Positions 13,726 to 31,637 of a stretch of DNA of 38,161 nt are shown in pieces. Below the pieces are notes generated by a model, which saw nothing but the letters and a program-made list of their open reading frames with translations, ran no database searches and was not told the origin of the DNA. The stretch is from a virus (taxonomy: Duplodnaviria; Caudoviricetes), in the IMG/VR virus record IMGVR_UViG_3300027566_000017, positions 1-38,161 of that record; one strand, given 5' to 3'. A program made the position numbers and the translations under genes. How positions within the stretch are numbered: position 1 is the stretch's first letter; each line of letters starts with the position of its first letter.

Positions 13726-14961
13726 TTGATGCCTACGATTGATGCAGCTGTCTCTCAACCACGAAGCGAGTTTAGATTAGCTGCTGCTGCTGGAGTTCTT
13801 GAGAAAAAAGACAATCCTACTGAATTTGGGGATTATACTAATTTTGATACAACGAATCGCTTTTTTAGATATCAGCAATTGGTTAAGAGTACTCCTTATG
13901 CAAGCATCGGAATGATGAAACTCAAGACCAGCTTGACAAAGGGGATGGATTTCGACGGTAAGAAAACCGTTGTAAAAGAGTTTCAGAAATGGGCTAAGAG
14001 AACAAATCTCATAGGCCAGGTTCAAACTGTTGCCGGCTCCCTGTTCAGGGACGGGACCTTTGCAGGCCGGGCAGTTGGAAACGCAGATAAACTGAAGCTC
14101 AGGCCTCTTATCATGGGATATACTACTATAATCCCTGAAGGGTTTGATCCCAAAACTTCAGGTAAACAACTGCTTGAACCAGATCCTAAATTTTTCATCG
14201 TGAACGAAGGGTCGACGGGTACAGTTAAAGAGATACCCTACAGGGCAGATCAGGTCATTTACGGGACCATAAACGAGTGGGATTCAAAGCAGCTGGACCT
14301 GAAGAAAAGGGAGACCATCGGCTTGTATGGTGAAAGCCTGGTAGATCCCATCGAGCTCTCAATTCGGTACTTGCATATCATCAACCAGGGCTATGTCGAG
14401 TTTGTCAGAAAATACGGCATGGGTCGGTATTCTTATTCTTTTCCTTTCATGGAGATGCTAGTCGAAAAAGGAATAATTTCTTTTGATAAATTTCAGAAAG
14501 AAATCGACGCCTGGATGGAAAGTAACAAGAACCTCAGCCAGAACGAAGATCTCGTGGGCATAGCTAAAGCAACTCCTGTAGACGCAATGGGCAAATTAGA
14601 TGTAATGCAGTTTAAAAAGGCCCTCGAGACTGAAATCCAGCTTGGGTTCTTGCAGTCTGATCTCTCTATGGGGGATTCGAAGGGGAGCACTTACGCTGCA
14701 GGTTACGTTTCTGAAAATTCCAGGATGGTAGTTCTGGAAAATCTCCAGCTGAACCTTTCTAACATCGTTAATGATTTCATAAACAGGCGGTTAAGCCTGC
14801 AAAATAAAAGTCCTGATACTGTAGAAATTGTTTTTGACGAGCTCAGCTTACCTCAGATGACAGCTCAGGATATGCTCGAATGGGCAAACACTGGAAAAAT
14901 TACAGACGATGAATTGAGAGAATGGGGAGGTTTCCCAGTTAAACAGGTGGTCACAGAATGA
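13726..14961 (+). CDS. Portal protein
   Basis: 411 aa, position after terL; GDSKGSTYA and GKITDDELREWGGF patterns typical of portals. Confidence 0.85.
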   Translation: MMPTIDAAVSQPRSEFRLAAAAGVLEKKDNPTEFGDYTNFDTTNRFFRYQQLVKSTPYASIGMMKLKTSLTKGMDFDGKKTVVKEFQKWAKRTNLIGQVQTVAGSLFRDGTFAGRAVGNADKLKLRPLIMGYTTIIPEGFDPKTSGKQLLEPDPKFFIVNEGSTGTVKEIPYRADQVIYGTINEWDSKQLDLKKRETIGLYGESLVDPIELSIRYLHIINQGYVEFVRKYGMGRYSYSFPFMEMLVEKGIISFDKFQKEIDAWMESNKNLSQNEDLVGIAKATPVDAMGKLDVMQFKKALETEIQLGFLQSDLSMGDSKGSTYAAGYVSENSRMVVLENLQLNLSNIVNDFINRRLSLQNKSPDTVEIVFDELSLPQMTAQDMLEWANTGKITDDELREWGGFPVKQVVTE

Positions 14962-16748
14962 CATTTTTTTTAAAATCTTTTGTTAATAGTGTTAACAATA
15001 TAAATAAAATTAAATTTAACTTTGCAATATCAATTTTGATTTTTCTAACTTTGGTTTCGTGTGCATCTGCATCAACTAATATTTCTCTTGGTTTTTGGCA
15101 TCCAAATACAAATCCTGAAACTTATCAGCCAAATTGGACAGCATTAACTCACGTTGCAAACATCGATTGGAAAATAAATGCAGACGGGACTCTTATAGAT
15201 AATAACGCAGATACAAATAGACATTCTAACATCATTTTTTCTAATGCAAAAGTACATGGTGTAAAGACATTAATTAGTGCCGGAACAGGCTCATCTAATT
15301 CAGATAATATACTTGCTTACCATCAGGACGAATTTGTTAATAGTGTAGCGGACAAAATCAATCAAACTGGTGCAGAAGGCATTATTCTTGATTTTGAGTA
15401 CCCTTCAAGCACAAATAGTTACACCGGAACCTCAAACACTCCCCTTTTTGAAGAGTTTATGAGAAAACTCTATAAAAAAGTAAAGTCCATAAATCCGGAA
15501 TATACGGTTGCATTCTGTACACCCCCATACTTTGAGGGAGTTACTACAACATTCCAAAACAGAAATTTGAGCAATTATATAGATTTTGTCTTTATTATGG
15601 GTTATGATTATCATTATAATGGTCCTACAGGTGCGAACTCTCCCTATTATAATGATTCTACCAGATATGGGCTTAGATTCTCAATAGCTGAACAATCAAA
15701 GGTTTATGGAAAAGATAAAATTGTTTATGGAGTTCCATTCTACGGATACGAATATATTGCGACATCTAACAGCCCTGGAGCTTCTATTCAATCAGTGATA
15801 GGGGAATTCCATTTAAAAAATGTTGATAAGAAAATCCAGACATACGGTAAACAATGGGATTCTGATTCAAACACTCCATACTATTACTATTTAAATGATA
15901 GTAGCGGGACTAATAAACAAGTTGTTCTAAATAATTGTGATAGTTTAGGATCTACTACTTATGATTATCATGTTAACAGAACTGTAGAAAAAGGATCATA
16001 TAAATCAGTTGCAACTAGAAACAGTTCTGTATTTTTAGTTCTAAGGAATAGTTCAAGATGGGATATATCTTCTGCAAACTATGTCAATCTGGATGTAAAA
16101 GCACCTCTTGGAAAACCTGTAGTAGTTAGGTTATTCTCTGGCCAGGATACGAATTATATTAATTACCGAGTTATAGTAAATGGAAACTGGCAACACATAA
16201 CAATCCCATTTAAACAGATTTCTCCAGTTGGGCGATTCAATCCAGCCAGCCTATATTATATCCGTGTTGATCTCCAAAACGCTGTAGTAGGAGACACTTA
16301 TTATGTTGATAATATTACCACATCTACCGAAGTTGATACCTACCGGCAGGGATGGTATGATGATGCAGAGTCTCTTGCTTTAAAATATCAATATATAAAA
16401 GACCAGGATATTAGAGGTATCGGTTTCTGGGCTTTAGGTTTTGAACCTTCTAATGTTTGGGAGCTCATTCAGCCTGAACTTCCGATGTTGCCCGCTTCAG
16501 TCCTTCCTTGCGCTAATTTTACGACTGTAACTATTTTGGGTAGAGTTCCGTTCAACGTTTCTTTTATCGATGATAGCACAGGCTCACCTACATCATGGTC
16601 TTGGAATTTTGGTGATGGAAATACATCGACTGAGAAGAATCCAACTCATGTATATGGTAAACCCGGAAATTACACAGTTTCGTTGATAGTTAACAACAAC
16701 AACGGAAAGTCTGCAACGACTGGATATAATTATATTAGGGTGATATAA
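14958..16748 (+). CDS. Secreted GH18 glycoside hydrolase with inserted beta-sandwich (CBM-like) domain and C-terminal PKD domain
   Basis: Signal peptide; EGIILDFEYP, IMGYDY, GVPFYG, GIGFWALG motifs; WSWNFGDG...NPTHVY PKD. Confidence 0.88.
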   Translation: MTFFLKSFVNSVNNINKIKFNFAISILIFLTLVSCASASTNISLGFWHPNTNPETYQPNWTALTHVANIDWKINADGTLIDNNADTNRHSNIIFSNAKVHGVKTLISAGTGSSNSDNILAYHQDEFVNSVADKINQTGAEGIILDFEYPSSTNSYTGTSNTPLFEEFMRKLYKKVKSINPEYTVAFCTPPYFEGVTTTFQNRNLSNYIDFVFIMGYDYHYNGPTGANSPYYNDSTRYGLRFSIAEQSKVYGKDKIVYGVPFYGYEYIATSNSPGASIQSVIGEFHLKNVDKKIQTYGKQWDSDSNTPYYYYLNDSSGTNKQVVLNNCDSLGSTTYDYHVNRTVEKGSYKSVATRNSSVFLVLRNSSRWDISSANYVNLDVKAPLGKPVVVRLFSGQDTNYINYRVIVNGNWQHITIPFKQISPVGRFNPASLYYIRVDLQNAVVGDTYYVDNITTSTEVDTYRQGWYDDAESLALKYQYIKDQDIRGIGFWALGFEPSNVWELIQPELPMLPASVLPCANFTTVTILGRVPFNVSFIDDSTGSPTSWSWNFGDGNTSTEKNPTHVYGKPGNYTVSLIVNNNNGKSATTGYNYIRVI

Positions 16749-18358
16749 TGAAATTAAAAATTTCTCTGCTAATTATTTTTTTTGTTTTGTGTATGGGGTC
16801 GGCATCTGCGACGCAATTACAGGCAGACGAGTACACAAAAATATTGATGCATTTTGATAACGGCAATGGAAATACAACATTTGAGGATGAAACGGGGCGT
16901 GTATGGGCAGGTGTGAATGGAATCACTCAGAGCACGGGATCTATTTTTGATGGTAGTACATCATCTCTATTAACAAGTAGGTCAGCAGATCGTTACGTCA
17001 GATCATCGAATGTTACTGGGTTATGCCCAGGTACACAAGATTGGACAATTGAATTTCAAGCAAAAAGAAACACCGTAGGAACCGAGCAACGAATTTTTGG
17101 AAATACAAAGGCTGATGCGTTATTGCGAAACGCAACATTTGATATTAGATTTGTTGGAACAACTGGCAAAATAAGAGCTGCGTTTGGAAACGGAGCTACG
17201 TATAAAGCAATAGATTCGATATCATCTGTCAATGACACGGACTGGCACACGTATACAATTGAAAGAAAAGGACGATATGCTGTAATACTCCAAGACATGA
17301 AATATTTTGGCTGCACCGATCTCGGAGAATCGTATTCTCTACTCGATTCGGACACACAGTTTGCAATAGGCACAACTGGATTGGCCACTTATCCAGCATT
17401 TGATGGGTATATAGACGAGTTTCGCTATTCTGTCGGTATCGCCAGAGTTTCAGAAGATTGGATGGATTGGTATTTCATAGGCGACTCTAACACAGATGCT
17501 ACAAATACTGGTTTGACACCTAATGACGGGTCATGGTGTTACGTTTTTTCGATGGTTGCAAATGGAAACAATGTTACTGGAGATCATGCAATTGGTGGAT
17601 ATGGGATGTTATCTAGTTGGGGAGTCTCAAATATGAATGCATATTACCCATATCCTAAAAATTACGGTATCATGCTAGGTTCTAATGATGCACATACAGG
17701 AAGATCAGCAGCGACAGCTGCAACAAATGTAAAAACGATGTATGATTGGGCTGTAGCTAATGGATCTAATGCGGTTATATTAGTCCCTCCTATGGCAGTA
17801 GATACTGGAGGGTATTTAGCTTTAGCATATCAGCAACAGTGGATGCATGATTTTCAGAATAATCTGACTGGGTACAAATACATAAAAGCTTATGATGCAA
17901 CTGACACAAATCCGGGTAACGGGGAGCCTGGAGCAATAAATGCTAGCCTTTTCGAATCAGATGGACTGCATCTGAATGAAAACGGACAGACCGCACTAGG
18001 AAATTATATCTGGAGTCAGTTAAGGGGTGATTTTACTGCATCTCATGTTTCCGGGGACGCTCCATTGAAAGTAAAAATAACACACAGCAATCAAATGTTC
18101 CCAGCTTCATCTATGATCTGTGATTTTAATAATGATGGTGTGACAGACTCCAACAGGACAAATCCAGTGCATACATATGGTTCTGCGGGTGACTATACAA
18201 TTAATTTGACCGTTAATAACACATATGGATATTTCCCACATGTTAAAACTAATTATATAACCGCTACATCTCAAACATCACCCTCGACATTAGAGCAGTA
18301 TTGGAATGTCCTAATGAATTTCTTATTCGGATTAACTCTACAGGGGGCGAGAATATAA
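16748..18358 (+). CDS. Secreted LamG-like lectin plus SGNH/GDSL hydrolase plus PKD protein
   Basis: Signal peptide; LMHFD...FDGYIDEFR LamG-like domain; GDS, GSND and DGLH SGNH blocks; NPVHTY PKD. Confidence 0.82.
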   Translation: MKLKISLLIIFFVLCMGSASATQLQADEYTKILMHFDNGNGNTTFEDETGRVWAGVNGITQSTGSIFDGSTSSLLTSRSADRYVRSSNVTGLCPGTQDWTIEFQAKRNTVGTEQRIFGNTKADALLRNATFDIRFVGTTGKIRAAFGNGATYKAIDSISSVNDTDWHTYTIERKGRYAVILQDMKYFGCTDLGESYSLLDSDTQFAIGTTGLATYPAFDGYIDEFRYSVGIARVSEDWMDWYFIGDSNTDATNTGLTPNDGSWCYVFSMVANGNNVTGDHAIGGYGMLSSWGVSNMNAYYPYPKNYGIMLGSNDAHTGRSAATAATNVKTMYDWAVANGSNAVILVPPMAVDTGGYLALAYQQQWMHDFQNNLTGYKYIKAYDATDTNPGNGEPGAINASLFESDGLHLNENGQTALGNYIWSQLRGDFTASHVSGDAPLKVKITHSNQMFPASSMICDFNNDGVTDSNRTNPVHTYGSAGDYTINLTVNNTYGYFPHVKTNYITATSQTSPSTLEQYWNVLMNFLFGLTLQGARI

Positions 18359-22019: not shown

Positions 22020-22478
22020 TCAAAAAACCCTCCTTACCCATTTCACGATTTTTATCTTCTTAATTTCTAGAATATTAGAATAAATCTTATCTGCAAGTAT
22101 GTGCCCCCAAAGAGCTAATACTGCACCTATTATACTCTCTTCCCAAACATCAATTCCAAATTTAAAGCGTAGTATTAACCAAACTGGAGTTATCAAGATA
22201 AACGGGCCCCAACCAATAGAGTGGAGTATTTCCCTATGCCCTGCATCCACAAACGGCCTCCAGATAAATTTAAAAGGTCCCCATAGTTTAGTAACCAAGC
22301 TTGTAGATGAATCAAGGTCACAGGTTATCAAAAAAGTATAGGGAACAACTCCAGCCCAAAGTTTTAAAAAAGAATGAAAGTTTAGAAAGTTAGTATATGC
22401 AGCGTAGATCGAGGCAAGAAAAATTAAACTAATATTGAATTTAACGTGGTTTAAATAATCCATATTTTCCTCAAACAT
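22020..22478 (-). CDS. DUF2227/YdjM-like membrane metal-binding hydrolase
   Basis: N-terminal H, DLD, WGPxxxIWxP, HRxxxHS and HILAD motifs with TM helices. Confidence 0.8.
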   Translation of the reverse strand: MFEENMDYLNHVKFNISLIFLASIYAAYTNFLNFHSFLKLWAGVVPYTFLITCDLDSSTSLVTKLWGPFKFIWRPFVDAGHREILHSIGWGPFILITPVWLILRFKFGIDVWEESIIGAVLALWGHILADKIYSNILEIKKIKIVKWVRRVF

Positions 22479-24032: not shown

Positions 24033-25895
24033 ATGCATTTGAAAAGTTCGGCAATTATATTACTAACAATATTCTTACTCACATGTCCCGCTATAGCAGG
24101 TGATGAAGTAGGTGATGAAAACGACATAATACAAGGGCTAAAAGAGAATGCCGGAGGTGTATACACAGTTCCTGCAGGGACATACATCCTAAACTGCAAG
24201 GAATCGATCAAAGTCCCAGAAGGTACGACAATTCAAGGGACTATGAGTAAGTCCGGAAAATGGCTCACTATTATTGAATGGGGTCCGGATCTCAAGCTGG
24301 GGAAACAGGTCCCGGTTTTTGAAGCTTCGGATAATACAAAATTTCTATATTTGGATATCCTGGGGAATTCTGAAAACAGGCCTACAGTTCCGTATTGGAA
24401 TGGCCACAGCGGAAAAGAAAAAGGCAAGAAAAAGGGGCAGGGGTATGATAATGCAATAGGTGGAAAACATTTCAAAAACGTGGAAGTAGCTTACAACAGG
24501 TTCTCTGATAGCCTGGGTGATTATTTCCGTTTCTGGTACTGCGAGAACATATCTTTTCATGATAATTATGCTACTGGATGTGGACACGATACCTTCTATG
24601 GGACTCAATCCGAGAAGCTCATAGCGTATAATAATTACATCGAGCCGATGGCCAACTCTGCATTAAGGGTGATGGACTGCTCAGGAGTGTTATTTCATTC
24701 AAATACAATAGTAGTTCCAGAGGGAGGAGGTCCTGCAGGGCCAGGGATCCAGATCCAAAATGATAAAGGGGAAATGCACGATATCGAGGTCTGTTATAAT
24801 ACAATATATTCTTCTTATGGCCCGGGTTTCTGGGTCGTCGGTAAAACAAAAACAGGGAAGCAGAGCGCAAATATTCATCACAATGTTATCATGAATGCTG
24901 GCACTGATCGGGGTATCTACTGGGTCGGAGGCATGGTAATTAGTGGATATGACAACTTGAAAATTTCGAACAACGTTTTTGATTCTTGTTATCGTGCCGG
25001 GATCCTATATTATGCTTATAACAAAGCGTGGGGGACCGAAGCACATTCTGACATTTCGGAAAATATTTTCACAAATATTCAGGTAGGCAGATCTGATAGC
25101 AGAGGCGGTAATGGAATTAGATGCGAGATAGGTCCTCAATCAATAACCAGTGAGGACAACTGTTTTTGGGATAACACAGGCAATGATGTCGAAGGCTGCC
25201 ACAAGTCCAGCTCCGATATCTCATTCGATCCAAAAAAGAACAAAACACCATCTGGGTATACCTGGGACGAAGATGAAGAGGCCTGGTCTTGTGATGGTAT
25301 GCCACCAACTAGTTTAGATTATAATCCAGGTGGAGTCTATGATAACGAGGATCCAATCACAGATGAAGAAGCTCAGGAGTTTGAATTTGATAATTTTCTT
25401 GATGTTCTTTCTGAGAGGATTTGCACTCAAGTAGATGAAGATGAAAATGTTATACTGCCAGATGGAATCGAAGAAAGCCCGACCAAGGCACTATGCGAAG
25501 TTGAATATCGTGTAATGGGTAACAACACGACTACTTTCGTAAAATTCTCAGATGATAAACTAAGGGGAGTTTCTGAGGTAGTATATGAAGTCGATGGAAA
25601 AACAGCTACACATACCCTAATGCTAGGGGAGAAAACTTCACATGGAGTTGTCTTTACAGAGACTTCGATATGGAGTGGCGAATTAGATCATACAGGTGAT
25701 GATTTAGAGCTTCCTGGTAAAATCGATCTGCAAGATATCACCATCACCTGTGTTACTCCAAAGGACACCTTCCAACCAATAATTGAAGCAACCACAGTAA
25801 AGGTTGAGCCAATTACAATAAATCCAATTATGATCGGGATTTTCTTTGAGATTTTTATAGGTATATTTTTGCTTACTGTATTTTTGAGATATTAA
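24033..25895 (+). CDS. Membrane-anchored right-handed beta-helix protein (pectin-lyase fold, disaggregatase-like)
   Basis: Signal peptide; VYTVPAGTY cap; repeated I-x-x-N rungs (ISFHDN, IAYNN, IHHN, ISNN); C-terminal TM helix. Confidence 0.8.
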   Translation: MHLKSSAIILLTIFLLTCPAIAGDEVGDENDIIQGLKENAGGVYTVPAGTYILNCKESIKVPEGTTIQGTMSKSGKWLTIIEWGPDLKLGKQVPVFEASDNTKFLYLDILGNSENRPTVPYWNGHSGKEKGKKKGQGYDNAIGGKHFKNVEVAYNRFSDSLGDYFRFWYCENISFHDNYATGCGHDTFYGTQSEKLIAYNNYIEPMANSALRVMDCSGVLFHSNTIVVPEGGGPAGPGIQIQNDKGEMHDIEVCYNTIYSSYGPGFWVVGKTKTGKQSANIHHNVIMNAGTDRGIYWVGGMVISGYDNLKISNNVFDSCYRAGILYYAYNKAWGTEAHSDISENIFTNIQVGRSDSRGGNGIRCEIGPQSITSEDNCFWDNTGNDVEGCHKSSSDISFDPKKNKTPSGYTWDEDEEAWSCDGMPPTSLDYNPGGVYDNEDPITDEEAQEFEFDNFLDVLSERICTQVDEDENVILPDGIEESPTKALCEVEYRVMGNNTTTFVKFSDDKLRGVSEVVYEVDGKTATHTLMLGEKTSHGVVFTETSIWSGELDHTGDDLELPGKIDLQDITITCVTPKDTFQPIIEATTVKVEPITINPIMIGIFFEIFIGIFLLTVFLRY

Positions 25896-26069
25896 TGTAA
25901 AACGATATTGATTAATCAATATTGTTCTTTTTTTTAATCTTTTAACTTATCTCTCTTTATATAATTTGTAAACAAAAATACCAATTTTTTAATTATAGTC
26001 CACTCTCTTTATATACTTTGTAAACATTATGAAGTATATACAAAACGTATAATTTTTAGAAGGTTAAAT

Positions 26070-26657
26070 ATGAATCGAAAATTGTTAAGAATAATTGGAG
26101 CTGTTTTTTCACTGCTCATGCTTTTTAGCTGTATCATATTAACAGCGGAAGCAGGACGAACCGACCAAGAACCAAAGAAAACATACGACATTGTGCGTTC
26201 TGATGAACTGACTGGCGATGAGGCAGATGATGAAGAGGATACAAATTCTGACTCGAACAGTAACTCAGGGAGTAGCAGCAACGACGACGGTCCCATAAAA
26301 AGCAATGAAATATTTACTAATGATAAAATCCTTGGCTATGATATTAAGGAAAGGGATTTCTGGGAACCATTTAAACCATCTAATTGGCTAAAGGTGGCAA
26401 TGGTCAGTGACACCTTTTTTCAAATATTCTGTTTATTATTTGCAGTTTTAGGATTGAGTTGTTTTTCAGGCTCTATACTCGCGTTCCTCAAGAGCATATT
26501 GATTATGGTATTCGCGTTGTTAACAAACAACGACCCCGATGAAGCGATGGCGACTGTAGATAATGAAACAAAAAAGACTACTAAATTTGTGAAAGGTATT
26601 GGTACAGTAGCCTTTTTTATGTGTGTGGTCTGCTTTGGAATGACTTTGATTATATGA
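26070..26657 (+). CDS. Membrane protein: signal peptide, acidic linker, 2-3 C-terminal TM helices (VirB2/pilin-like position)
   Basis: Hydropathy by eye; first gene of the ATPase operon. Confidence 0.65.
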   Translation: MNRKLLRIIGAVFSLLMLFSCIILTAEAGRTDQEPKKTYDIVRSDELTGDEADDEEDTNSDSNSNSGSSSNDDGPIKSNEIFTNDKILGYDIKERDFWEPFKPSNWLKVAMVSDTFFQIFCLLFAVLGLSCFSGSILAFLKSILIMVFALLTNNDPDEAMATVDNETKKTTKFVKGIGTVAFFMCVVCFGMTLII

Positions 26658-26667
26658 GGAAATACTT

Positions 26668-27840
26668 ATGAAAAAATTATGTGCGTATTTCGCACTTCTT
26701 CTTTTATTGATTTTCCTCACCGGTACGGCGATTGCAGAAACAACTGCCAGCAAAGACAGCAAAGGCATCAAGGTCGTAGATTCAAAAAATGGTAAAATAA
26801 AAGACGCTGACGGGAGTAATAATAATCTTGAATACCAGGCTGCTCTGAAAAAACAACTCGAGGAAGACGACGAAGAAGACGAAGAAGTAATCGAGGATGA
26901 AGAGCAGGAAGACGAAGACACAAAGAAAAACGTAAATGGTAATAATGGGGATGGGGAAGGGGGTTTATTAAAAAGTTTAGAAACTGCGTATGAGAATGCA
27001 CAATATTCTGTAATCAATGGTATTATAGATCAACTGTTTGAAGGATCCGTCACGATATTTGAGACGGAAACAGACACGGATAAAAACGGAGATGAGTTAG
27101 TCACTTATAAAATAAGAAATGTAGCGATCAATCCATTTGAACCGGTTTTTGTTAAAAAATCAATTCTATATACCGGTGCATTTTACCTATGTATCGCTAT
27201 ACTTCTTATCCCTGGATCCTACTTAATGCTACTGATCTACAACAACGCAGAGTATCCTTTCGTAGAGGCAATGGAATATTTGACGGGGGAAGAAAGGCCA
27301 TACGATAATGAAATGCAGAAATTTGTCTGTAAAACTGCATTAACGTATTGGTGTATTTCAATTACAACTGTTTTCTTAATTACGGGGCTTAGAAATCTTG
27401 CTATTTCTGCTATCACTCCACATGAAGTCGTGTTACCGGCTTTATATGCCGACTCTATACCTATCAGATTACTTGAAGGTTTAGCGTCATTCAGCAACGC
27501 TTTTGAGTCAAAATTCGGAGTGTATGGTATCCACATTTTCGCTGCAGCTATATTGATTTTGGGCATAATTTCACTTATTATACTCTTCCTAGGGAATATT
27601 AGAGGGTTCGTTACGATTAATGTGATCTTATGGGGTATGTTCTTACTTTGTAACTTTATTGATGTGATTAACACTGGATCCTTATCAGTAGGCATAGGGC
27701 TTTATTTACATTATTCAGATCCAACATACGTCACTGTAGGCATGATATTCGGAGGGGTTCTGAATATTTTCATTGCTTATAGAATTATTAAATGGGCATC
27801 TTCACAACGTTTTATAGATCAAATAGTCGAGGGGTACTGA
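26668..27840 (+). CDS. Polytopic membrane protein (VirB6/TrbL-like architecture)
   Basis: Signal peptide, acidic region, about 5-6 TM helices; GAGGA SD. Confidence 0.65.
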   Translation: MKKLCAYFALLLLLIFLTGTAIAETTASKDSKGIKVVDSKNGKIKDADGSNNNLEYQAALKKQLEEDDEEDEEVIEDEEQEDEDTKKNVNGNNGDGEGGLLKSLETAYENAQYSVINGIIDQLFEGSVTIFETETDTDKNGDELVTYKIRNVAINPFEPVFVKKSILYTGAFYLCIAILLIPGSYLMLLIYNNAEYPFVEAMEYLTGEERPYDNEMQKFVCKTALTYWCISITTVFLITGLRNLAISAITPHEVVLPALYADSIPIRLLEGLASFSNAFESKFGVYGIHIFAAAILILGIISLIILFLGNIRGFVTINVILWGMFLLCNFIDVINTGSLSVGIGLYLHYSDPTYVTVGMIFGGVLNIFIAYRIIKWASSQRFIDQIVEGY

Positions 27841-28829
27841 TGGCAACAAAAAATCTAGCACCTATTGAGAAGATGAGACCTGTCAGGTATCAGCCACATG
27901 TCTTATCAAGTGCGCTAAACATGTTTGGTGGCACTACGACTATGAAATGGTCAACATTGTTCGCTATAATGGGTATGGTAGATGCAGCACTTGGGATGAC
28001 TATTTTTTTCACATTTGGAAGAAAGATTATTTTTCAATTTTTTATATTTAATGCAGTTTCATTCACTGCTGCCTTACTTATGATAGTAGTATTTACTTTA
28101 TGGTTATGGTTTGCAGGACACCCACAGCGATTGGATAATACAATAGGGCGTATGCTTTTCAATAAACGGGTCAGGAAATTTATTGACAAATTCTCTATCT
28201 TCGATGACAGGGTCACCGAAGCTGAAGTACAAAGAATTACTGGGTTTGTGGGATATGATCCTGAAAGCGGGCTGTACCGCACTCTTGTAAACAAAGCTAA
28301 AGATGGATTCTGGGCAATCAGAGGTCATCCTTACAAGGGAAATTGGTGTTACGTGGTGACTGCCAAACCCGATTATACTATGACAGATCACCAGGTGATT
28401 ATTGAAAACATGTATGCTTCGGATAAAACATTCAAAGCAGGCCACTACAAAAACACAGTGATGATTACTGGAAATACGGCAACTAAGGTCCTGCAGGAAA
28501 TGAAGGATAAACTCAAAAAACCCAACATCGATAAATTTTCAGAACAGGCCCTTTACTCAATTCTTGAAATGTATAGAGGGCAAGAGAGCACGAAAGAGCC
28601 AATTTATCTAATACTTTTCGGATTACCTTTTACTCTTCGAAAAGAAACGGCATTACAAAATATGAGAGATATGAGGGCAGGGTACGAAGCCTCGATAAAT
28701 GTCAAGGGGATCAAAACCGAGCTTATTACAGATCCGTATATACTATCTTTGTTAATAAAAGGCGCTCTAACCTGCAAAATGTTTGTTCGTGGGGATCTGC
28801 TTGGGAAGGGTGGTAAATTTGGGAATTAA
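27840..28829 (+). CDS. PrgI/TcpE/VirB3-like protein with two N-terminal TM helices and a soluble domain
   Basis: ATG at 27840 overlaps the upstream stop, GAGGGGT SD; immediately upstream of the VirB4-like ATPase. Confidence 0.6.
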   Translation: MATKNLAPIEKMRPVRYQPHVLSSALNMFGGTTTMKWSTLFAIMGMVDAALGMTIFFTFGRKIIFQFFIFNAVSFTAALLMIVVFTLWLWFAGHPQRLDNTIGRMLFNKRVRKFIDKFSIFDDRVTEAEVQRITGFVGYDPESGLYRTLVNKAKDGFWAIRGHPYKGNWCYVVTAKPDYTMTDHQVIIENMYASDKTFKAGHYKNTVMITGNTATKVLQEMKDKLKKPNIDKFSEQALYSILEMYRGQESTKEPIYLILFGLPFTLRKETALQNMRDMRAGYEASINVKGIKTELITDPYILSLLIKGALTCKMFVRGDLLGKGGKFGN

Positions 28830-31443
28830 AGAACGCTTGATAAGTAGGGCAAAACGTCGAGCTATAAAGAAAGCAGCAAAAGAACATGATGAGCTTGAAG
28901 GGCTGCTTGACCGTGAAATTTCATACTTAATGGCAATAGAAGATGTAGACTCTCCGACGAAAGGACCCGACGCAGGCCTGTTTACAATTTTCAACCAGGA
29001 AGTGCACGCCCAGGCCTTATTAATCGGCGTGAAAGAAAAGTACAATCCGATGCTTAAAGAGTATTCAGAGAATTACGACCTGGCAACCATAGATAGGGTC
29101 GTCAATCTCTGCAGTGTCGATGAAGCAAATGTAATTCTTTCTCACAATGTGATAGGGCTGAAGGAATCGACAAAACACACCTTGCTAAAAGCTGCCCAGA
29201 ACACTGTCAGTAGGGTAAATGCTCAAATTCGTAAAAGACGGGTGAAGCCTGTAAATGCAGCTGTAAATAAAAATGAAGAAAAGAAGCTGGATGCACACAC
29301 CAACGTTACATTGAATGGAATGGATAGTTATGCGTTATTTGCCATGGTATGTGTGGTCCTATCTCCAGACAAAAACATCGTAAAAGACACTATCACAAAA
29401 TTAAAGGATGTGCTGCTCGAGGGTGGTATTAGATCAATTGTGCCTAGATTTGCACAATGGAGTGCAATACAACTAGCCCTACCTATCAACGTAGTTCCTA
29501 TCAAATTCTTCCAGCCAGTCAACGGGCGCACAATCGCTTCAATGTCTCCATTAAGAGACACTCTCTCTGCATTTTCAGGTAAAGGTCCAGTATGGTTTGA
29601 TGAGCTTGATACGCTTCGCCCGTGCCAGATTTGCGCCACCCTCGAAGATCCGGAAGGAGTTTTTATTCTTGGTCCTCCAGGATCCGGAAAAACAACATTA
29701 ATGTGTAAAGTAGCTGCCAGTGCTCGTGCATTGGGCCATAACGTTGCAATGATAGAGCCAAAGGAAGAAACCAAAAAGGGCACTGACTTCCGTAATTTCG
29801 TGAGAGAATATGGTGGAGCAATTGCTATATTTGGCCCGGATGGAATCAACCCAGCGCCTTTAATCATCCCGTATGACAGAACGATGATGGGCACACGGTA
29901 TGCTACATACAGAAAGGCAAAAGACAATTGGATAGACACGGTTGAAGCCATTGTAAAAACGTGGGTAGGAAAACTATCTGAAAGGCAAGAGGGCTTTTTG
30001 GTAGCTACTCTTATTGGGTTGTATATTAGTCGCCATATCCTTAAGCCAAACGGAGATCCCGATAACGTGGAGTTGTGGGATCAACCAGGAGCTCTTGATT
30101 GGCCTTCCATTCATGACTGGCGACTGTATATGAAAGAAGAAGTAAAAAGAAAAGAATCTGATTACTTCAACGACCAGTCTGTCCTTTCACTGTATCACAG
30201 AATGGTAAAAGCGATGGAAGGAGGCACATACTGGTGGTGGGCTAATTCAAAAGAACATATGCAGTTCGACAACAAATTGAAACTTTATGATGTAAGTGGT
30301 GTTCCAGACAGTCTCCAAAGCGCGATTATGATACAAATCTTCGGTGCATTGAATACGGCATACTATTCAAATGATGAGGTCGAGGACAGGCCACAGACAT
30401 ACATAATAATAGATGAAATCAGCTCGATCATCCAGGCTGAGGAATCGATACCGTATATCGATAAATGCATGAGCAAAGGAAGAGCTCCAGGAGTCTCAGG
30501 TGTCCTCGGAACTCAGCACCCTGTAATGAAAGAAAATTTTGTGAATATGGTCAATGCAAACATTAGCAACTTAATAATAATGAATAACTTAACGCCTCAA
30601 AATATACACCTATATTGCGATCCGTTTAATATTGATGAAAAATACCGATTAGATCTTTTGCAACAGGGGTCAGGTTACGGGACATGCTTCCGGAACGGCC
30701 ATGCAACTAAATTCGTCGTCAGACTCGACGAAAAGCTTGACAAAGCACTTCTAGCAAGTCAGAGGGCTGCAGGATCCGATGGAATAGAAAGTTTGACGGC
30801 AGACGAGCGTGGATTTGCAGTCGAAGAAGCTGTCAGACCTATCTACGATAAAGAGCATTTCTTCGTCACAGACTGGCTTGTAAGCAAACCTCGCGGTAGT
30901 TATCCTGGGTATGAATATTCCAACCCTGAAAATCCACTGAGTAGGGGAGGGAAATATGCTGCCTACATAAGAGAGGACCAGGTGAAGAAAATAGAGGGCA
31001 CCCGCGCCGATGGTGAAAAATATCAGGATCTTGTTGGGCCTGAAAGTGTTAAACATTTCGTCATCGTTTGCATCATCACAGGCTGGATGCGCATGCACGG
31101 TTTCCAGGACGTTGTGATACATCACAACAATGGACCCGATATCACATGGCGCGGAGGCTGTCTTGAGTATGAAATGCCAGGAACTCATAATAGTATAGAG
31201 GCTTGGAATGGAAAGCTCAAGAGGGCGAGAGAGGCCGGATTTAAGCACATAATCTTCACAGGAATAGGTTCAGTTTGTACTGAAATGATGGAGAAGGAAG
31301 GAACTGAAGTCACAGCATACGTATATCCTCAGGGTGAGAAATACCTGAGGGCCAAGTTGGAAAGTATCTGGAAGGAAAATTTAGAGCGTGAAGGGCGGGT
31401 CCTAAGCCCTATATCACCCTCGCCACAGGAAGTGGAGGCTTAA
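28819..31443 (+). CDS. virB4: VirB4/HerA-FtsK family ATPase with C-terminal PD-(D/E)XK-like domain
   Basis: Walker A GPPGSGKT (29671-29694), Walker B IIIDE, KGRAPG and GTQ motifs, N-terminal QxxxxxxxLP; start likely TTG 28819. Confidence 0.8.
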   Translation: MGIKERLISRAKRRAIKKAAKEHDELEGLLDREISYLMAIEDVDSPTKGPDAGLFTIFNQEVHAQALLIGVKEKYNPMLKEYSENYDLATIDRVVNLCSVDEANVILSHNVIGLKESTKHTLLKAAQNTVSRVNAQIRKRRVKPVNAAVNKNEEKKLDAHTNVTLNGMDSYALFAMVCVVLSPDKNIVKDTITKLKDVLLEGGIRSIVPRFAQWSAIQLALPINVVPIKFFQPVNGRTIASMSPLRDTLSAFSGKGPVWFDELDTLRPCQICATLEDPEGVFILGPPGSGKTTLMCKVAASARALGHNVAMIEPKEETKKGTDFRNFVREYGGAIAIFGPDGINPAPLIIPYDRTMMGTRYATYRKAKDNWIDTVEAIVKTWVGKLSERQEGFLVATLIGLYISRHILKPNGDPDNVELWDQPGALDWPSIHDWRLYMKEEVKRKESDYFNDQSVLSLYHRMVKAMEGGTYWWWANSKEHMQFDNKLKLYDVSGVPDSLQSAIMIQIFGALNTAYYSNDEVEDRPQTYIIIDEISSIIQAEESIPYIDKCMSKGRAPGVSGVLGTQHPVMKENFVNMVNANISNLIIMNNLTPQNIHLYCDPFNIDEKYRLDLLQQGSGYGTCFRNGHATKFVVRLDEKLDKALLASQRAAGSDGIESLTADERGFAVEEAVRPIYDKEHFFVTDWLVSKPRGSYPGYEYSNPENPLSRGGKYAAYIREDQVKKIEGTRADGEKYQDLVGPESVKHFVIVCIITGWMRMHGFQDVVIHHNNGPDITWRGGCLEYEMPGTHNSIEAWNGKLKRAREAGFKHIIFTGIGSVCTEMMEKEGTEVTAYVYPQGEKYLRAKLESIWKENLEREGRVLSPISPSPQEVEA

Positions 31444-31458
31444 TAAACCTCCTTTTTT
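31434..31458 (+). terminator. Hairpin plus T-tract ending the ATPase operon
   Basis: GGAGG-N9-CCTCC-TTTTTT. Confidence 0.5.
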
Positions 31459-31637
31459 CTGGCTACTATACGTAGTATAGTTTAAGAAAATTTATTTTTC
31501 TTTTAATAAGTTATTTATGTATAGGAAGAGATATCACATGATGCCCAAACAGCAGTTAAAATTCAAAGAAATAAATATAATATATCTTATAATAATATAA
31601 GGGTTCGTTCAAGATCTTACTTATTGGAGTTATTCTT

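Follow-up and report, generated by a model that had tools for sequence, protein, structure and literature searches.

Can one viral protein hold both the motor that pumps DNA through a conjugation-type channel and the enzyme that cuts this DNA? The question is raised by a VirB4-type ATPase gene in the IMG/VR virus record IMGVR_UViG_3300027566_000017 (Duplodnaviria; Caudoviricetes), whose entire 38,161-base stretch is called the window below. An earlier reading of the letters, hereafter the original prediction, had proposed that this ATPase ends in a PD-(D/E)XK-like nuclease domain acting as a possible built-in relaxase. For archaeal conjugation, reviews state in their accessible parts that the relaxase is so far unidentified (PMC12857230, PMC9905601, PMC6563490). 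Our analysis demonstrates that the fusion is real; what is new is a VirB4 variant with a tail of modelled nuclease fold, the function of which is predicted. Among the papers listed by our literature searches, no title or abstract opening describes such a fusion, or a module with VirB4 in viruses of methanogens; subscription papers, methanogen-virus surveys or supplements may already annotate it.

Beyond the ATPase core, the protein continues for approximately 235 amino acids (aa; about 240 in the original prediction), comprising a small subdomain (residues 676-747) and a nuclease-like part (residues 748-868). The motifs that had been picked out are all in place, including ESVKHF at 31042-31059, PD at 31135-31140 and EYE at 31165-31173, and the observation as a whole is confirmed. 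The structure model of the domain has a predicted local distance difference test score (pLDDT) of 94.9 and consists of a mixed beta-sheet core flanked by helices in alpha-beta-beta-alpha-beta order, with D786 before strand 2 and E795 on strand 3 in positions that fit its strands. In a fold search against 48,161 chains, the best seven matches are all PD-(D/E)XK-type proteins, with superfamily labels in part assigned by us; the structural neighbours include several restriction or CRISPR-ancillary nucleases. The model and the fold search thus bear out the predicted PD-(D/E)XK-type fold. Foldseek against PDB and BFVD returned nothing at E<=0.001, the best BFVD row being a 'competence protein' at E 0.007. 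For the tail, scanning Pfam, NCBIfam and PHROGs with one sequence was uninformative, as was a profile search of PDB. A full-length model built from four sequences was discarded at a pLDDT of 41.

In 12 close homologues, E754, H758, D786, E795, E797 and H802 are invariant. A redundant alignment of 114 rows, 81 of which were retained for matching the domain profile, has H758 and D786 in all rows, E795 in 113, E797 in 112, K811 in 111 and H802 in 97; the five candidate catalytic residues are thus retained in 111-114 rows, down to approximately 22% identity. A different fold and a lack of H/D/E conservation, both named beforehand as outcomes that would count against the original prediction, were looked for and neither was found. 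Its PD...ExE motif stands in D and ExE, whereas P785 is present in just 19 of the 114 rows, so that 'PD' is really 'xD'. The canonical lysine place is occupied by E797, and the conserved lysine is K811 on the next helix; according to the portion available of PMC1189080, such a shift is a known active variant of PD-(D/E)XK enzymes. In three clades, with 9, 3 and 2 unsaturated pairs, the ratio of nonsynonymous to synonymous substitution (dN/dS) for the domain is 0.118, 0.127 and 0.055, respectively, a range of 0.055-0.127 as compared with 0.013-0.055 for the ATPase. A loose H..D..ExE..K pattern occurs in 4 of 338 130-aa segments of other viral open reading frames (ORFs), a control set that includes two relatives of the VirB4-nuclease protein itself, implying that the layout is beyond chance. 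The domain is therefore predicted, on its modelled structure, to be an active PD-(D/E)XK nuclease with a metal site of D786, E795 and E797 and with K811 moved to the next helix.

By sequence, the motor part is a VirB4-type ATPase. With a wider-family profile, E is 1.7e-27 for the VirB4 structure 4AG5 as compared with 2e-4 for HerA, and the profile of the window's own clade reached 4AG5 at E 4e-4, ranked under repeat-driven RecA rows. The top NCBIfam matches are VirB4, TraC and CedB models (CedB weakly, at E 1.8e-6), all far short of their cut-offs; for a named VirB4 family the best score is 55 bits, against a curated cut-off of 590. One family member matched 95 plasmid records, with coverage below 80% of the query in every one; among the 40 plasmid matches listed, the alignments begin at about residue 4-148 and end at 468-637 of 807, and the partners are mainly TrsE/TraE/DUF87 genes. 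These alignments and the profile matches to 4AG5 bear out the VirB4 identity first suggested. A VirB4-type N-terminal domain is present, and hydropathy reveals no N-terminal transmembrane anchor of the VirD4 kind. A tblastn search with the window protein itself matched none of 72,556 plasmid and 50,697 phage records; with a distant member of the family as query, 12 phage records matched, in the ATPase part only. Homologues suggest that the real start is probably residue 10-13.

The same fusion was sought in other archaeal elements and is conserved in Methanosarcinales viruses and genomes. Against 1.84 billion proteins, the domain profile gave 19 matches, namely 11 long ATPase fusions, six shorter pieces of the same region and two unrelated repeat proteins; this profile is narrow, and distant stand-alone relatives would escape it. 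A second search yielded 94 proteins, with the domain in 81 and absent from 13 (four close relatives ending early and nine distant ATPases, among which P0138 may hold a weak domain). An early genome scan made no find. Later, matches came from 39 of 284 Methanosarcinales genomes, extending past the Walker A region in about 30 of them, and from 3 of 401 genomes across a phylum sample, indicating a family almost confined to Methanosarcinales. The same gene module accompanies the fusion even between clades whose ATPases share only 22% identity. It lies in head-tail viruses (L012, L014, L015, L027, L066) and also among host genes, with active-site residues intact in L033-L035 and L064 and kept in L065, L069 and L070. 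The L033-L035 ATPases are approximately 70% identical to the viral L027 copy, which suggests capture from a virus. In the L064 group a two-transmembrane gene is fused to the ATPase (about 1075 aa), with a primase-polymerase gene nearby in L064, L065 and L069. At L031, the module is adjoined by an upstream Cdc6 gene and an ArdC-type anti-restriction gene (L031:11168-11977, minus strand).

In the window, the module is a co-oriented block between the minor head and capsid genes, encoding a beta-helix protein, a small transmembrane protein, a multi-transmembrane protein, a two-transmembrane protein and the ATPase (Table 1). The beta-helix surface protein is a candidate envelope-opening or adhesion factor. 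The VirB6-like multi-transmembrane and pilin candidates had no family match in Pfam/NCBIfam-type scans; their topology and gene order fit. Across clades, the multi-transmembrane protein (probability 96.3%) and the two-transmembrane protein (96.7%) are homologous, and the latter is fused to the ATPase in P0018 as well as in L064; an internal duplication between it and the ATPase N-terminus was looked for and not found. A small gene with two or three transmembrane segments occupies the pilin place in most loci, and those of two clades do not align (1.6%). Before the pilin candidate, at 25951-26026, stand two 24-base direct repeats, 96% identical and 52 bases apart, ending in a motif also found reversed in promoters behind relatives' ATPase gene, a possible operator.

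Table 1. Features of the window, and of relatives where a locus is named
Feature	Position	Strand	Remarks
Virus record (the window)	38,161 bases		estimated 68% complete; no terminal repeats
Membrane-anchored beta-helix, disaggregatase-related surface protein	24033..25895	+	Pfam PF08480 E 1.7e-27; conserved at module head
Signal peptide and short transmembrane hairpin, candidate VirB2/CedA1-like pilin	26070..26657	+	putative
Five- to seven-transmembrane protein, VirB6/CedA-like	26668..27840	+	putative, from topology and position
Two-transmembrane protein with soluble domain, VirB3/PrgI-like position	27792..28829	+	putative
VirB4-type ATPase with C-terminal nuclease-fold domain	28783..31443	+	886 aa counted from first TTG
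N-terminal VirB4-type domain	28900..29562	+	about residues 40-260, boundaries approximate; P0055 aligns with plasmid TrsE/TraE/DUF87 ATPases from about residue 30
P-loop ATPase core	29563..30747	+	Walker A GPPGSGKT 29671-29694; Walker B IIIDE 30403-30417; VirB4 profile match
Small alpha/beta subdomain, residues 676-747	30808..31023	+	structure model; conserved; dN/dS 0.10-0.18
Predicted PD-(D/E)XK-fold nuclease domain, residues 748-868	31024..31386	+	structure model, fold search, residue conservation
Candidate active site	E754 31042; H758 31054; D786 31138; E795 31165; E797 31171; H802 31186; K811 31213		
144-aa protein with one transmembrane segment	31969..32403	+	downstream; close clade L004-L009, L012-L014
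Non-coding element, loci L004-L009, L012, L014	about 90-250 bases past ATPase stop, e.g. L012:12716-12875		

The window also encodes terminase, portal-like, minor head, capsid-type and tail-completion proteins, and G005, identical to it over 18,786 bases, runs on into tail genes. We consider the record to be that of a tailed virus, probably with a Methanosarcina-type methanogen as its host; the host is suggested by the disaggregatase-related domains and by the occurrence of the same module in genomes named as Methanosarcina and Methanoperedens. A GH18 glycosidase-PKD gene and a GDSL esterase-PKD gene (14958-18358) are flanked by the portal-like and minor head genes. A DUF2227/YdjM-like membrane protein at 22020-22478 (minus strand) recurs near the module in L017, L021, L027, L029 and L066.

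Because the window's contig is only 68% complete, it cannot by itself show that relaxase and coupling protein are missing, as the original prediction had it; this part of the claim is supported in two complete relatives. G001 (56 kb, terminal repeats) and G002 (102 kb; loci L016-L024 for the two) are both rated 100% complete. Pfam scans of their ORFs of at least 90 aa (all 62 in G001; 108 of 118 in G002, minus module and virion genes with window homologues) found no relaxase, VirD4 or integrase of known families; shorter ORFs and unknown families may hide such genes. No second large unexplained ATPase was found in either by Walker A pattern, which deviant motifs such as that of ParA escape. 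G001 has Cdc6 and RecT, and G002 has ParA and MCM. It is possible that both are plasmid-like prophages also bearing the channel module. Replic_Relax occurs in one of the 284 Methanosarcinales genomes, G290 (L072-L074, three copies), with no ATPase match listed there; these genes could be real or binning contamination.

The particular tie to Replic_Relax that had been drawn for the domain did not survive comparison. Using profiles from our own alignments of 30 Replic_Relax and 23 CoiA domains, the profile-profile probability is 72% between the domain and CoiA, 25-37% (at best 37%) between the domain and Replic_Relax, and 67% between CoiA and Replic_Relax. We conclude, at the level of sequence, that the domain is a separate branch belonging to neither family; 72% to CoiA is short of a confident family assignment. 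Like MOBC/PF13814 proteins (TraX of pAD1, MobC of CloDF13), as far as excerpts of the sources describe them (PMC12857230, PMC6736028, PMC5357655), it combines the PD-(D/E)XK fold, a D..E..E/D metal motif, a next-helix lysine and a link to conjugation, and the D..Ex(D/E) metal motif of Replic_Relax aligns with its own. Unlike it, MOBC enzymes stand alone as proteins, carry a winged helix at the N-terminus and a conserved K-x3-Y tyrosine, and have a VirD4 partner. The PF13814 hidden Markov model (HMM) matched none of nine members at E<=1 and none of five virus records at E<=0.1, and residues 676-747 did not match the Replic_Relax winged helix (30-sequence alignment, probability 0.5%). Four residues past the helix lysine, tyrosine is found in 26 of the 30 Replic_Relax domains sampled, as against alanine in 76 of 114 rows here, where tyrosine is outside the four commonest residues; no tyrosine is invariant in 34 rows. 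No Replic_Relax structure figures in the fold-search lists, though a likeness may exist. In the passages available, TraX Y181 is reported essential and a covalent protein-DNA adduct was not observed for MOBC enzymes (PMC6736028, PMC12857230), so that MOBC-like hydrolytic nicking may occur even outside the MOBC family.

The alignment with the CoiA nuclease domain (PF06054) spans 72 columns and pairs the ES..H of the first helix, the D, the E and a basic residue on a helix. The domain differs from CoiA by ExE instead of ExQ, the absence of an N-terminal zinc-finger context and the fusion to VirB4, and the PF06054 (CoiA_nuc) HMM found no match in nine members. CoiA nicks supercoiled DNA, cuts single-strand/double-strand junctions and is a D-loop resolvase, as described in the accessible part of PMC13663708; by analogy, its chemistry may be a workable model for that of the domain.

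A possible substrate site is suggested by a non-coding element of 160 bases that contains an imperfect inverted repeat; it lies behind the ATPase gene in all 8 sister-clade loci and is single-copy in both G001 and G002. It scores 54 against 16 for shuffles; the following 160 bases are conserved too (43 against 20). In L027 it is marginal (0 of 200 shuffles; one of 14 loci tested), in the window it was sought and is absent, and an Rfam search with the sister-clade element gave no match. An RNA holder for the region is not on record either, which counts neither for nor against one. The window's intergenic regions yielded no shared repeat resembling an origin of transfer (oriT), and the TGTTTACA motif was counted without a chance control. 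The element is a candidate oriT, replication origin or regulatory site, and should be taken as a lead. Directly past the window's ATPase stop, at 31450-31470, are short overlapping palindromes, noted by eye without a chance control.

Starting from what is directly observed, namely the fusion, its conservation, the five-gene module and its location in head-tail virus genomes, we give roughly even chances to the following mechanism: the predicted nuclease of the VirB4 fusion cuts DNA at the entrance to a minimal channel of the conjugation type, and the free end is pumped into a neighbouring cell. An ATPase oligomer would sit beneath the multi-transmembrane channel, with its C-terminal tails cutting DNA hydrolytically by Mg-dependent nicking or trimming in which protein and DNA form no covalent bond, a chemistry supposed by analogy with CoiA and MOBC enzymes. 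The motor would then pump the resulting end out into the touching cell. Since cutter and motor are one chain, a separate coupling protein would be unneeded for bringing DNA to the pore. The DNA would move without a pilot protein, and repair in the recipient would rely on host or viral recombination (RecT is encoded by G001). The likeliest use would be export of the virus's own plasmid-like genome. A broader proposal, which we regard as possible but doubtful, is that methanogen tailed viruses are plasmid-like replicons spreading by conjugation as well as by particles, with a one-ATPase machine whose VirB4 both recognises the transfer origin and cuts it, forming a relaxase- and coupling-protein-free class also domesticated by hosts.

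In topology and gene order the module would also fit the minimal set of Ced and Ted, and Ced imports DNA (PMC9905601, in the part available); the channel might thus take DNA in, while the nuclease trims or resolves recombination intermediates in the manner of CoiA. CoiA is the nearer of the two profiles tested and acts after uptake (PMC13663708, likewise in part), and the active site is retained in chromosomal copies. However, where context is available the loci are mostly viral or in mobile regions, the family is present in only about 30 of 284 Methanosarcinales genomes, export profits a virus more, and the CoiA probability is not a confident one, so that import seems unlikely to us. The conserved element would instead suit a true site-specific, MOBC-like relaxase that nicks one oriT and starts rolling-circle single-strand transfer, as would the H...D...Ex(E/D)...K layout common to the domain and Replic_Relax and a Replic_Relax cluster given by Atlas at a TM score of 0.60, below its naming bar. 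This reading, which we hold to be distinctly unlikely, is opposed by the unmatched PF13814, the lack of a winged helix, the alanine at the tyrosine place, the absence of the element from the window, and the difficulty of moving a motor-bound domain with DNA. As for the original prediction, the conserved motor-nuclease fusion stands, and a built-in relaxase, if this strictly means an enzyme that bonds covalently to DNA and travels with it, is unlikely because the domain is tethered to an 880-aa motor.

Defence often makes use of PD-(D/E)XK domains, and the restriction and CRISPR-ancillary neighbours, together with the lack of a coupling protein, would agree with a role in conflict. The nuclease would then destroy competing DNA as it enters at the membrane, in superinfection exclusion or entry exclusion; alternatively, the channel would secrete protein instead of DNA. 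We place such roles lower still, given a fixed fusion to an intact VirB4 within a full channel module that includes a wall-degrading-type surface protein. It is highly improbable that the domain is without catalytic activity and serves as a DNA-binding adaptor in place of the coupling protein: the canonical (D/E)xK lysine is absent and activity is predicted from sequence and model, but D, E, E, K and H hardly vary and the lysine has migrated as in the active variant cited above.

The VirB4-nuclease fusion supplies a concrete candidate enzyme, with named residues, for the DNA-cutting step of archaeal conjugation, and Methanosarcina is a genus with genetic tools. If the proposed export is true, a virion-forming virus could also pass between touching cells. 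Since the family is almost confined to Methanosarcinales, it would explain one lineage and not the Sulfolobus or Thermococcus plasmids.

Among known systems, the module resembles Gram-positive-type VirB4/TrsE/TraE machines (PDB 4AG5; NCBIfam NF045975, NF045971, TIGR02746) in its N-terminal domain, P-loop core and two- and multi-transmembrane neighbours, and differs from them in the extra C-terminal tail of approximately 200 aa. Archaeal conjugative plasmids (Sulfolobus plasmids, Thermococcus pT33-3) likewise have VirB4 and, in the accessible parts of PMC12857230 and PMC6563490, no identified relaxase; they encode VirB4 and VirD4, whereas the module here has one ATPase. With Ced of Sulfolobales and Ted of Thermoproteales it shares the absence of a relaxase and, to judge by topology and gene order, would share the minimal set of VirB4, VirB6 and pilin (PMC9905601, in the portion available). 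Ced and Ted, however, are chromosomal, with a separate HerA-NurA pair proposed to make the substrate, while here the putative nuclease is on the motor and the module is in tailed viruses.
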